This document shows positions 10,286 through 27,175 of a stretch of DNA of 64,000 bases, piece by piece. The notes below the pieces were generated by a model. The model worked only from the letters and a program-made list of their open reading frames with translations, was not told the origin of the DNA and made no database searches. How positions within the stretch are numbered: position 1 is the stretch's first letter; each line of letters starts with the position of its first letter. The translations under genes and the position numbers were made by a program. Origin of the DNA: Flavobacteriales bacterium (GTDB lineage Bacteria > Bacteroidota > Bacteroidia > Flavobacteriales_D > UBA2798); NCBI GenBank assembly GCA_035299065.1, contig DATGXI010000095.1:12299-76298 (forward strand). Direction: 5' to 3'.

Positions 10286-10915
10286 ATGAAATTATTCTTA
10301 ACCATTGCCGCTCTTGCCTTTACAGGCGTGACTATGGCGCAGGACCAGGATCCAAAGGCCAAAACAATTCTTGATGAATTAAGCAAGAAAACAAAGGCCT
10401 ATTCAACCATACAGGTTGAGTTTACTATGAAAACCACCAATAAAACCAGTGGTACAAATGAAACTGTAAAAGGTACAGCTACCATGAAGGGTTCAAAATA
10501 CATTATTGACCTTGGCAAGCAAAAAGTGTTGTGTGATGGTGTAAAAGTGTGGACCCTTTTGATGAAAGAAAAAGAGTGTACCGAAGAAACGGTTGAAGAC
10601 AACAGCGATGCCACTACCAACCCAACCAAATTACTGACCATTTGGGAAAAAGGATTTAAGTACCGTTTTGTTAAGGAAGAAGGAGGAATGCAGGAAATTC
10701 ACTTATTCCCTACCGATACCAAAAAATCAAAATACCATACAGTGATTTTAAAAATTGACAAAGCAAAAGAACAAGTGAAAACCGTTACCGTAAAAGGTAA
10801 AAACGGTGATGTGATTGAACTGGACGTAACAAAGTTTACACCCAATGTGCAGGTTGAAGATGCTAAGTTTAAGTTTAGCAAGAAAGATTACCCGGATTTT
10901 ACAGTGATAGATTAA
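10286..10915 (+). CDS. lolA: Outer-membrane lipoprotein carrier protein LolA
   Basis: Signal peptide; AKTILDELSKKTKAY, LCDGVKVWTLL and NPTKLLTIWEKGF patterns typical of Bacteroidota LolA; 209 aa. Confidence 0.85.
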   Translation: MKLFLTIAALAFTGVTMAQDQDPKAKTILDELSKKTKAYSTIQVEFTMKTTNKTSGTNETVKGTATMKGSKYIIDLGKQKVLCDGVKVWTLLMKEKECTEETVEDNSDATTNPTKLLTIWEKGFKYRFVKEEGGMQEIHLFPTDTKKSKYHTVILKIDKAKEQVKTVTVKGKNGDVIELDVTKFTPNVQVEDAKFKFSKKDYPDFTVID

Positions 10916-10949
10916 TAGACGCTAGACTCAAGACGCTGGAAATACAAGG

Positions 10950-10979
10950 AAACCGGAATTTAATTGTTCCGGTTTTTTT
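10950..10979 (+). terminator. Intrinsic terminator after lolA
   Basis: AAACCGGAA/TTCCGGTTT stem followed by a T-run. Confidence 0.8.
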
Positions 10980-11009: not shown

Positions 11010-11224
11010 CTGCAAGCGATAGAGCCGATACCCCGGAACAAAAAGTGAAAGAAAAGCCGGATACTGCGCTACGCCTGGATCATAAGTAAAAAAATAGTTT
11101 ATAGCTGCTCAATCAGGAACGAGGCTTTTCTTTCACTTTTTGTGAGGAGTAAAGGCGAAAGCGCGGCCCGCGAGGAATTTCGAGTGCTGAATTTCCAGTT
11201 TCGAACTTTGCCGAGGGGGTGCAG
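11010..11224 (+). ncRNA. Structured intergenic element, copy 1 (Flavo-1-like core)
   Basis: Core AGCGATAGAGCCGATACCCCG...GAGGAGTAAAGGCGAAAGCGCGGCCC; perfect 21-bp inverted repeat at 11038-11058/11123-11143; closing CTGCA/TGCAG. Homologous to 26975-27157. Confidence 0.6.
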
Positions 11225-11244
11225 CATAATTGAACTCTTGAAAA

Positions 11245-11423: not shown

Positions 11424-11606
11424 ATGCACCAGTTATTGTTTTTAGGAAAGTTAGGTACTACCGAGATCATTTTGATTCTTGCGATTGTGTTGTTGTTATT
11501 TGGAGGCAAAAAAATTCCTGAATTAATGCGCGGTTTGGGCCGTGGCGTGAAGGAATTTAAGGACGCTTCAAAAGGTGAAGGCGACAATACCCCAAAGAAA
11601 TCCTAA
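11424..11606 (+). CDS. tatA: Twin-arginine translocase subunit TatA/TatE
   Basis: [37 protein letters not shown] signature. Confidence 0.97.
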
Positions 11607-11634
11607 TTTTTTTTTTCAAAGTCACAGTTGACGA

Positions 11635-13059
11635 ATGGAAGTTCGCCACTACAGCAAAATCCGTGAAGATTTATTTTCGGGAAAGCACTCATGTGTTGAT
11701 TTGGTTCAACATTACTTGAAAGCTATTGCCGAAAAAAAAGAACTGAACGCGTACCTTGAAGTATTTACTGAAAGTGCGTTGGAACTTGCGCGCAAAACCG
11801 ATGAAAAAATAAAAAACAAAACTGCCGGTAAACTTGCCGGTTGTGTTATTGCCCTAAAAGATAATATTGCTTACAAGGGACATAAAGTATCGGTATCATC
11901 CCATATTCTTGAAGGATTTGAAAGTATTTACACTGCAACGGCTGTTGAGCGTTTGCTTGCTGAAGATGCTATAATAATTGGACGTACCAATTGCGATGAG
12001 TTTGCGATGGGAAGCTCCAACGAAACCTCCTACTACGGCAATGTATTGAACCCACACAACACGAAATGTGTACCAGGTGGATCAAGCGGTGGAAGTTGTG
12101 CTGCAGTTGCTGCCGGATTGTGTACTGCTGCATTGGGAACCGACACAGGCGGATCAATACGCCAGCCCGCATCATTTACAGGTACGGTTGGCATGAAACC
12201 CACTTACGGAAGAATTTCACGTTATGGTTTGTTGGCCTACGCCTCATCATTTGATCAAATTGGCCCTGTTACAAACAATGTACATGATTGCGCCCTGTTA
12301 ATTGAGGTGATGGCTGGCAAAGACCCAATGGACAGCACCAGCTCAAGCACAAAAACCGAAGCCTACAGTGCATTGCCTGCATCGGATACAAAATATAAAA
12401 TTGCCTATTTAAGGGAGTGTATTGAAAACCCCGGTCTTGACCCTGAAATAAAAAATAATTTTTACGCAACAGTTGAAAAATTAAAAGCCCAGGGCCATAG
12501 TGTTGAAGCAGTAAATTTTCCGTACCTGGACCATTTGGTGCCTACGTATTATGTGTTAACAACAGCCGAAGCCTCAAGCAACCTGGCGCGTTATGATGGT
12601 GTGCATTACGGATACCGCAGCAAAAATGCAACTGACGTGGAAAGCACTTACGTTAAATCGCGTACCGAAGGTTTTGGGAAAGAAGTGAGGCGCAGAATTA
12701 TGCTTGGCACATTTGTGTTGAGTGCCGGATATTATGACGCTTATTATACAAAAGGATTAAAAGTGCGCAGGCTGATTAAAAATCATACCGATGATATATT
12801 TACCGGCCACGATTTTATACTTACACCCACTACACCAGGAACAGCATTTGAATTTGGGGCCAACAGTGCTGACCCTGTAAAAATGTACCTTGAAGATATT
12901 TTCACAGTGCAGGCGCCTATTTGTGGAATTCCTGCAATTAGCATTCCTGCGGGTGTACATTCAAATGGCTTACCCTATGGTATTCAATTGATGTCACCAA
13001 AATTTACAGAGAGTAAATTGTTAGCATTTTCAAAAACCCTTGAAGGGATGCTTGCGTAA
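11635..13059 (+). CDS. gatA: Asp-tRNA(Asn)/Glu-tRNA(Gln) amidotransferase subunit A
   Basis: Amidase signature GGSSGGS...LGTDTGGSIRQPAS; SSNLARYDGVHYG and EVRRRIMLGT motifs. Confidence 0.97.
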   Translation: MEVRHYSKIREDLFSGKHSCVDLVQHYLKAIAEKKELNAYLEVFTESALELARKTDEKIKNKTAGKLAGCVIALKDNIAYKGHKVSVSSHILEGFESIYTATAVERLLAEDAIIIGRTNCDEFAMGSSNETSYYGNVLNPHNTKCVPGGSSGGSCAAVAAGLCTAALGTDTGGSIRQPASFTGTVGMKPTYGRISRYGLLAYASSFDQIGPVTNNVHDCALLIEVMAGKDPMDSTSSSTKTEAYSALPASDTKYKIAYLRECIENPGLDPEIKNNFYATVEKLKAQGHSVEAVNFPYLDHLVPTYYVLTTAEASSNLARYDGVHYGYRSKNATDVESTYVKSRTEGFGKEVRRRIMLGTFVLSAGYYDAYYTKGLKVRRLIKNHTDDIFTGHDFILTPTTPGTAFEFGANSADPVKMYLEDIFTVQAPICGIPAISIPAGVHSNGLPYGIQLMSPKFTESKLLAFSKTLEGMLA

Positions 13060-26974: not shown

Positions 26975-27157
26975 GCGTGAGGGATGGAAGTGGAAAGCCC
27001 GCACCCTGAAGTGAGAGCGTCAATGAATTAGCTTAAATAGCAGTGATAAATTTAGGCGCTTTACTTCAGGGGAGGACTTGGAACGTACAGCCCGACCCCA
27101 CGAGGGTAAGTGATTTCAAGTTTAAGATTTCAAATTTAAGATTGAGTGGGGGCACGC
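26975..27157 (+). ncRNA. Structured intergenic element, copy 2 (Flavo-1-like core)
   Basis: Core AGGGATGGAAGTGGAAAGCCCG...GAGGACTTGGAACGTACAGCCCGACCC; long hairpin at 27004-27021/27055-27071; closing GCGTG/CACGC. Confidence 0.65.
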
Positions 27158-27175
27158 ACTAAACTGAACTAAGGG

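Follow-up and report, generated by a model that had tools for sequence, protein, structure and literature searches.

What are the two similar intergenic sequences in this 64,000-nt stretch of a Flavobacteriales genome (contig DATGXI010000095.1, positions 12,299 to 76,298; the whole stretch is called the window below)? They lie at 11010–11224 and 26975–27157, share two cores, and differ by changes that compensate each other in the predicted stems. The first-pass annotation had taken them for two copies of a structured element with a core like that of Flavo-1, an RNA motif of Bacteroidota (Rfam RF01705), which raises the question of whether the element is a small-RNA gene or something else. We found that both stretches belong to a subfamily of the Bacteroidota element Flavo-1 that is enlarged and has been amplified in this lineage. 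In its behaviour the element most likely resembles a structure-dependent genomic repeat more than a small-RNA gene.

Architecture and relation to Flavo-1

The source genome is a soil metagenome-assembled genome (MAG) of 5.07 Mb in 193 contigs. Fuzzy and hidden Markov model searches of this genome yielded dozens of paired 5' and 3' cores, and a covariance model, R1, was then built solely from its own copies. R1 has 93 positions and 23 pairs; its input alignment combined 22 native copies with 49 whose loops had been trimmed, which turned the variable loops into insert states. Both window copies match R1 over positions 1–93 of 93, copy 1 with 66 bits (E = 8e-15) and copy 2 with 50 bits (E = 1.5e-10), and the search found no other copy in the window. 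When each copy is folded alone, its minimum free energy (MFE) structure is the same three-way junction, with z-scores of −4.1 for copy 1 and −4.95 for copy 2; none of 200 dinucleotide shuffles folds as well. The parts of the two copies are as follows.

11010–11229, + strand: copy 1, whole element, from the closing stem P1 to the tail CATAA (R1 match, MFE fold)
11010–11014, + strand: copy 1, 5' strand of P1, CTGCA (sequence; P1 covaries family-wide)
11016–11037, + strand: copy 1, 5' half of the Flavo-1-type core arm, corresponding to the Rfam Flavo-1 consensus ccGAUuGaAGcGGAAauCC; in order GCG (P2a), ATAGA (loop), GCC (P2b), GA (loop), TAC-C-CC (P2c), GGA (loop)
11038–11143, + strand: copy 1, variable tip P3, a 21-bp stem with a 64-nt loop (BLAST self-match, MFE fold)
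11144–11166, + strand: copy 1, 3' half of the core arm, matching the Flavo-1 consensus GauUguAgCGgAaAGCggGA; in order GA, GG-A-GTA, AA, GGC, GAAAG, CGC, then the junction GG
11167–11219, + strand: copy 1, second arm P4 (CCCGCGAGG ... GCCGAGGGGG), with GA/GA mismatches near its base (MFE fold)
11220–11229, + strand: copy 1, 3' strand of P1, TGCAG, and the tail CATAA (sequence)
26975–27162, + strand: copy 2, whole element, P1 GCGTG/CACGC, tail ACTAA (R1 match, MFE fold)
27002–27071, + strand: copy 2, internal loop (CA) and tip P3 with the stem CCCTGAAGT... / ...ACTTCAGGG (sequence, MFE fold)
27096–27152, + strand: copy 2, second arm P4 (CCCCAC ... GTGGGG), its loop holding AT-rich AAGATTT-like heptamer repeats

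The two cores are present as the first-pass annotation described them, and reading of the sequence confirms its pairings: CTGCA (11010–11014) pairs with TGCAG (11220–11224) in copy 1 and GCGTG (26975–26979) with CACGC (27153–27157) in copy 2, while the perfect 21-bp inverted repeat of copy 1 (11038–11058/11123–11143, around a 64-nt loop) is exact, with a BLAST self-match of 21/21.

The complete element is a three-way junction that consists of P1, the core arm P2a–P2c with its tip P3, the arm P4 and a single-stranded 3' tail. P1 is a closing stem of 5 bp (CTGCC/GGCAG, CCGCC/GGCGG, CTGCA/TGCAG, GCGTG/CACGC and other variants) and is followed by one A. The core arm, which is long, irregular and conserved in sequence, begins with P2a (GGG/CCC) and a 5x5 loop, AUAGA / GAWAG, continues with P2b (GCC/GGC or GGC/GCC) and a small variable loop, and then with P2c (UAC/GUA, UAG/CUA or AAG/CUU), where a C.A mismatch is conserved and CC/GG follows. 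Between the P2c region and P3 lies a GNA/GA loop. P3 is a free tip: the stretch between the cores measures 18–115 nt among the copies of this genome. Two nucleotides, GG or GA, join the core arm to P4, which varies from absent to ~108 nt and is often closed by CCC-GA-G... / ...C-GA-GGG; in the short form of the element a bulge of 2–4 nt takes its place. The tail, CCAAA by consensus, directly follows the 3' strand of P1, with C at +1 in 60/65 copies of this genome and A at +3 to +5 in 51–52 of the 65. The tails of the window copies, CATAA (11225–11229) and ACTAA (27158–27162), are variants of it.

The compensatory differences noted between the two copies in three stems (P1, P2a and P2c) are real, and they hold across the whole family. 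Among the copies of this genome, the P1 columns carry the pairs CG/UA/GC/AU. The change from GCG/CGC to GGG/CCC concerns the middle pair of P2a, with GC 34 : CG 3 and GC 32 : CG 3 in two alignments, and P2c alternates between TAC/GTA, TAG/CTA and AAG/CTT (GC 20 : CG 16). R1 served as a search device, and covariation was counted on real sequences, yet on alignments fitted to R1, which biases the following counts in favour of the structure: among 34 copies from other genomes, 88.5% of cells are paired and 21/23 modelled pairs have changes on both sides, and among 37 copies of this genus the values are 87.5% and 18/23. In both sets all 500 shuffles stayed below what was observed; with the registers slid, 25–44% of cells were paired in the first set and 36–43% in the second. 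This slide control, together with the independent MFE folds, argues that the covariation is not an artefact. In the set from other genomes, P1 is 98.8% paired with double changes in all five pairs; the first two pairs of P4 are 78–92% paired in the family sets, also with double changes. Within an 85-nt subfamily, copies that are 87–95% identical differ by compensating pairs such as CCCC..GGG vs CCCT..AGG and GCC/GGC vs GGC/GCC. The proposal that structure rather than sequence is under selection is borne out by these double changes, and the pairings do better than shuffled controls in covariation as well as in folding.

The link to Flavo-1 emerged only by way of relatives. Rfam returned nothing for the window copies, either at the gathering threshold or at E <= 10, while relatives in other genomes match RF01705 over its full length. 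Twenty loci from other genomes (L035–L054) score 40–64 bits with R1, and in 16 of them RF01705 overlaps the R1 match over positions 1–76 with 26–40 bits (E 8.5e-6 to 0.055), the best relatives reaching 40.3 and 39.8 bits. Six of 20 further copies of this genome are also matched by RF01705, with 22–35 bits (best 34.7, 31.2 and 30.3). The 42-bit Rfam gathering score was not reached by any of these copies, here or in relatives. Thus, the likeness to Flavo-1 is upheld by a chain of homology that runs through R1 to elements recognised by RF01705. The family has the core hairpin architecture and loop nucleotides of Flavo-1 (ccGAUuGaAGcGGAAauCC ... GauUguAgCGgAaAGCggGA). The core letters of the window copies are GCGAUAGAGCCGAUACCCC...GAGUAAAGGCGAAAGCGCGG and GGGAUGGAAGUGGAAAGCCC...GGACUUGGAACGUACAGCCCGA, and P1 and core of copy 2 (GGGATGGAAGTGGAAAGCCC ... 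GAGGACTTGGAACGTACAGCCCGA) are of a type common among other Bacteroidota. Flavo-1 was originally described mostly from Flavobacteria (Weinberg et al., 2010; PMC2864571). The carriers found here agree with its range in Bacteroidota, mainly Flavobacteriia, and include Lacihabitans, Leadbetterella, Cyclobacteriaceae and Bacteroides.

The Rfam consensus covers only the P2–P3 arm (76 positions). Rfam alignments treat the 5' strand of P1 as an insert, and the model does not extend to P4, the 3' strand of P1 or the tail, although these outer parts are conserved in copies from other genomes (GCGUG-A-GGGAU ... GGG-CACGC-CCAAA), and GCGUGAGGGAU... is already seen as a 5' flank in the original Flavo-1 alignment (PMC2864571). 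The catalogued motif and the element share the core arm (GGGAUnGA...CC / GG...GAnAGCCC), its helices and internal loops and the phylum, and they differ in that RF01705 lacks P1, P4 and the CCAAA tail, whereas the copies here carry long P3 and P4 inserts, number ~110 per genome and score below 42 bits. The suggestion of a true element of about 200 nt is right in that the element is larger than the catalogued motif and that P1 and P4 covary, but ~200 nt is special to expanded copies, as the family minimum is ~71–85 nt.

The size of the window copies, 183–215 nt, is explained by tips that tolerate inserts and have collected other small repeats. The P3 stem of copy 2, CCCTGAAGT.../...ACTTCAGGG, recurs in ~10 other copies with different cores and P4 arms, and also ~20 times outside elements. 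A module TTCCTSAGG-N(2-10)-SAAGGAT occurs 73 times genome-wide, 18 times inside elements (in P3 or P4, in either orientation) and 55 times elsewhere, and probably represents another family of small hairpin repeats. AT-rich heptamer repeats fill the P4 loops of several copies, including 27110–27145 in the window, and the AAGATTT and ATTCATA tandem types are present outside elements as 76 and 24 triple units, for example at C11:61312–61386.

Copy number, distribution and placement

In its own genome R1 finds 110–114 copies with a median length of 148 nt, which make up 0.30% of the DNA. Hence, the two window copies belong to a repeat of ~110 copies rather than to a two-copy element, and the search with a model built from the genome's own copies also yielded further homologues elsewhere. 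Two MAGs of the same genus carry 39 and 28 copies, and other genera of the order 0–4, so that among genera of one order the number ranges from 0 to 110. Of the sampled Bacteroidota genomes, 18/301 have an R1 match and 283/301 have none. Single genomes searched again on their own gave up to 55 and 22 copies. An exact pattern of the 3' core led to full elements, confirmed by R1, in Lacihabitans, Leadbetterella and Cyclobacteriaceae.

Several contigs end inside or beside copies: C136 (3' end) and C67 (end) of this genome, and C412 of genome G001 (start). C136 and C67 overlap by eight bases (caggttaa) within one copy. From this position of contig ends it follows that the element fragments assemblies of this lineage. 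A remnant at C66:72970–72988, where the P1 5' strand and the core start (CCGCCAGGGATTGAGCC) run straight into GGCCAAA, is an internal deletion derivative of an element.

All copies of the genome but one are intergenic by a long-ORF (open reading frame) proxy. Convergent intergenic regions hold 31 copies, tandem regions 24 in sense and 36 in antisense, and divergent regions are depleted (13/104). The 3' neighbour is convergent for 71/108 copies, and for many copies the terminator hairpin of a neighbour sits a few tens of bases away. The similarity between copies starts exactly at P1, stops at CCAAA and does not extend into the flanks. Among the genes adjoining the copies of this genome, no family recurs. 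Direct repeats at fixed offsets, as expected for a target-site duplication, are no commoner than in shuffled pairs of flanks, and no outer inverted repeat beyond P1 was found in the flanks of the copies. Upstream of the element, the copies of this genome have a T-run (−19 to −12) and AAAYY (−5 to −1), of which other genomes keep only YY at −2/−1; downstream they have an A-rich flank. Within the genus, a copy upstream of parE is present in genomes G000 and G001 and absent in G002, and one copy of G002 is absent at the orthologous site of G000.

In the window, copy 1 sits past a terminator of this kind.

10938–10979, + strand: terminator-like hairpin and T-run of the upstream ORF 10286–10915 (sequence; STnc240-like terminator alignment)

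On the 3' side of copy 1 there is an ORF of 60 aa (11424–11606). Soil metatranscriptome contigs cover 11461–11680, and many partial matches from other organisms fall there too. With overhanging letters that read like a translocase of the TatA type (KGxGKGIKxF), the ORF is probably just a tatA gene of the ordinary kind.

Repeat, RNA or exchange site

How the copies arose and what recognises them can be explained in several ways. The reading we favour, with our confidence about evenly divided for and against, is that the element is a non-autonomous repeat of the repetitive extragenic palindromic (REP) type, which depends on its fold and is probably recognised as single-stranded DNA (ssDNA). The likeness to REPs is suggested by the copy number, the patchy spread, the sharp ends, the unrelated flanks and the lack of a recurrent neighbour gene. 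The single-stranded form is suggested by full elements on replicons that pass through ssDNA, as conjugative plasmids and Microviridae genomes do. Conjugative plasmids of Bacteroides carry complete elements (88 plasmid records, p5482 among them), and in p5482 of B. thetaiotaomicron VPI-5482 the element (locus L092, 1911–1995) lies within an annotated hypothetical ORF near an ArdC-like gene. Another full element, with P1, core and CCAAA tail, is present in Microviridae sp. MG945641.1 (locus L090, 5596–5666), on the strand opposite to the phage genes.

Family membership, architecture, covariation, copy number and distribution are shown by the data themselves; a form at the DNA level, mobility and an enzyme acting in trans we infer from them. 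A folded single strand, more probably of DNA than of RNA, would be recognised by this putative enzyme, and the recognised module would comprise P1, the core arm and the tail. The tips P3 and P4 would be unconstrained and may in this genome have taken up the other small hairpin repeats, and copies would persist in harmless sites, mostly just past terminators at gene 3' ends.

Similar to the REP, BIME and REPIN sequences of Enterobacteria and Pseudomonas, the element is a high-copy, intergenic, structure-forming repeat. Like them, it is commoner at gene 3' ends and rarer between divergent genes, lacks a target duplication, keeps its fold by compensating changes and often forms inverted pairs. 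Unlike it, REPs are simple hairpins of 20–40 nt with a GTAG head, while the element is a three-way junction of 71–220 nt. The palindrome-associated transposable elements (PATEs) of IS200/IS605 share with it the lack of a target duplication and of terminal inverted repeats beyond a short stem, the structure-dependent and strand-specific character, and a short conserved single-stranded motif at the 3' edge (here CCAAA), like a right-end cleavage site; in IS608 this site is TCAA. By contrast with PATEs, the element has no TnpA/TnpB partner in the genome, its two arms are unlike each other, its tail directly abuts the foot of a stem, and the preference in its left flank is weak.

A considerable number of observations weigh against this reading. 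No mobilising enzyme for the element, no autonomous copy and no TnpB domain were found in the genome. Its sole Y1/HUH (PF01797) gene, at C46:9865–10161, is RAYT-like and is flanked by another hairpin family, which also sets the element apart from REPs. Soil strains that are ~91–93% identical have both window copies at the corresponding loci, so these copies are not recent insertions. The most similar pair of copies is 95% identical, and since no two exceed this value, the family is old and shows no sign of current activity. Empty sites that would define the ends of the element were found neither at paralogous positions in this genome nor in related soil strains, where the only apparent skips are other family members. 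The sense strand of the microvirus element is opposite to the genes, and the packaged strand of Microviridae is the coding-sense one, so that the packaged strand would carry the complement of the element. The sense strand tends to lie on the G-rich strand within ±5 kb (83/109; 62/97 after balancing for gene orientation), but this link is not significant at the contig scale (50/85). In the complete genome G287 (5.3 Mb), 11/13 copies are on one strand all round the chromosome, a bias that fits neither random orientation nor a simple replichore rule. Finally, the sense strand folds better in 79/110 copies, as would be expected of RNA, as would the purine-rich loops with tandem G.A and C.A, and Rfam classes Flavo-1 as a small RNA (sRNA).

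Several known systems were considered as the source of the element and rejected. A RAYT/REP link fails as the RAYT-like gene has its own, different repeats. These repeats, of the GACTCC..GGAGTC / GACCCCAGCGGGGTC type (C46:9700–10350, locus L001), are unrelated to the element; copies of them also adjoin several Flavo-1-type copies. A remnant of a TnpB or IscB guide RNA does not agree with the absence of TnpB, and an autonomous master copy was not supported, because the unpaired half-elements proved to be contig ends (C136/C67) or the deletion derivative. The lack of a fixed-length target duplication and of an outer inverted repeat, as well as a P1 of only 5 bp that covaries, speak against a miniature inverted-repeat transposable element derived from a DDE transposon. 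Integron attC sites were dismissed, as the copies are dispersed and do not form arrays in the same orientation, and the flanking AAAYY and CCAAA are not complementary. ARAGORN finds 51 tRNA/tmRNA genes, none overlapping an element, which speaks against a tRNA-like nature. CCA occurs within the last nine bases in only 11/50 tRNA genes of the genome; the CCAAA tail of the element abuts a stem.

The main rival is a structured-RNA family, which we consider possible, if rather doubtful: the copies would be either cis-acting elements of untranslated regions (stabilisers, insulators or protein-binding sites) or many small-RNA genes, in which the core binds a protein and the tips P3 and P4 carry copy-specific functions. 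Beyond the strand preference in folding, this agrees with the strong covariation, with loops of RNA flavour (tandem G.A, the conserved C.A, AUAGA/GAWAG), with the classification of Flavo-1 as RNA by Rfam and by Weinberg et al. (2010), with the orientation bias to the 3' neighbour (71/108 convergent), and with one copy, 29 nt 5' of a gene, which Lacihabitans soyangensis and two Leadbetterella-labelled MAGs share together with its flanks, which are homologous. However, no promoter or terminator pattern was seen in the flanks of the copies of this genome, and copies lie past terminators. The canonical Bacteroidota promoter (TTG / TAnnTTTG) was rejected on either strand, since the positions, compared by eye, do not fit, and a terminator function was rejected because, on both strands, the T-run precedes the fold and the A-rich flank follows it. 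Sense and antisense copies are both common (24 vs 36 in tandem regions). No RNA run contains either window copy, nor does any soil metatranscriptome contig cover them, the latter being weak evidence at a very low depth; the contig of the upstream gene stops at 10939, within the terminator before copy 1. A transcriptome study of Flavobacterium psychrophilum places its Flavo-1 hits in sense or antisense to transcribed regions and finds many of them without transcription (PMC9723704). Moreover, 110 copies with a spread of 0 to 110 between genera would be unusual for a cellular RNA. A discrete RNA of ~200 nt, as implied by the first-pass annotation, is at present not the most probable form.

Two further explanations see the copies as sites on DNA, and we regard both as improbable. 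In one of them, which seems unlikely, the copies are recombination or boundary sites, and outward-facing inverted pairs delimit slots for the exchange of accessory genes, in a cassette system distinct from integrons. Indeed, 15 of the 25 adjacent pairs within 20 kb are head-to-head, with tails outward, against the 25% expected (p = 2e-4), as are 6/8 pairs within 6 kb, and the independent genome G315, which carries 55 copies, has five head-to-head pairs and one tail-to-tail. The only reverse-transcriptase (RT) gene of the genome lies exactly between an outward-tailed pair, and gene content beside elements differs within the genus. This RT segment (locus L075, 2304–6567; C188:8803–13066) carries genes for the RT of 516 aa (RVT_1) and an HNH-like protein of 256 aa together with two unknown genes. 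It is bordered by a Crp-like gene and, at the opposite end, by parE, and looks like a defence-type island. But most copies are solitary, no recombinase is associated among the neighbour genes, and the genes within several pairs are ordinary or housekeeping ones, for example those of DNA polymerase III delta' and metallophosphoesterases. The head-to-head excess may partly follow from tails facing gene 3' ends, and no clean swap with conserved pair ends was observed. Taken together, the pairs keep this explanation alive without establishing it. The other explanation, which we find the least probable and very unlikely, is an ssDNA signal useful to the host, for priming or complementary-strand initiation, that is common to chromosomes, conjugative plasmids and microviruses and would be recognised by a Bacteroidota replication factor. 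Its models are ssoA-type single-strand origins (sso) and single-strand initiation (ssi) sites, which are likened to the element by structure and setting: both are folded, orientation-specific ssDNA of ~100–200 nt with conserved loop motifs, on plasmids and phages. They differ from it in having no sequence likeness and in being present once per replicon, not as chromosomal repeats. The occurrence on the Bacteroides plasmids (88 records) and in Microviridae, the conserved orientation-specific fold with its conserved single-stranded tail and the local association with the G-rich strand are in line with such a signal. However, the strand association is not significant at the contig scale, the sense strand in the microvirus is the non-packaged one, and the absence of copies from 283/301 Bacteroidota genomes argues against an essential signal.

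A broader proposal, which we put forward as a speculation and rather doubt, is that Flavo-1-type elements are not RNAs but folded ssDNA sites of a Bacteroidota-specific recombination or priming machinery. Chromosomes, conjugative plasmids and microviruses would share this machinery, the junction and CCAAA would be its recognition and cleavage module, and outward pairs would mark exchangeable segments such as the RT/HNH island.

Implications for Flavo-1

Flavo-1 has been in Rfam since 2010 as an orphan "sRNA" without an assigned function. The catalogued motif is only part of the element, a single arm of a three-way junction that also comprises a closing stem, another arm and a conserved 3' tail, and the extended model is a better search tool, as the Rfam model misses most of the copies in this genome. 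In some lineages the Flavo-1-type element is a repeat of ~100 copies whose tips tolerate large inserts, and the same element is carried by Bacteroides plasmids and by single-stranded DNA phages. This shifts the question from the role of a small RNA to which enzyme recognises the fold, and whether as DNA or as RNA, and cultured carriers such as Lacihabitans lacunae CECT 7956, a Flavobacterium or B. thetaiotaomicron with p5482, in which the choice between DNA and RNA can be tested, are now named.

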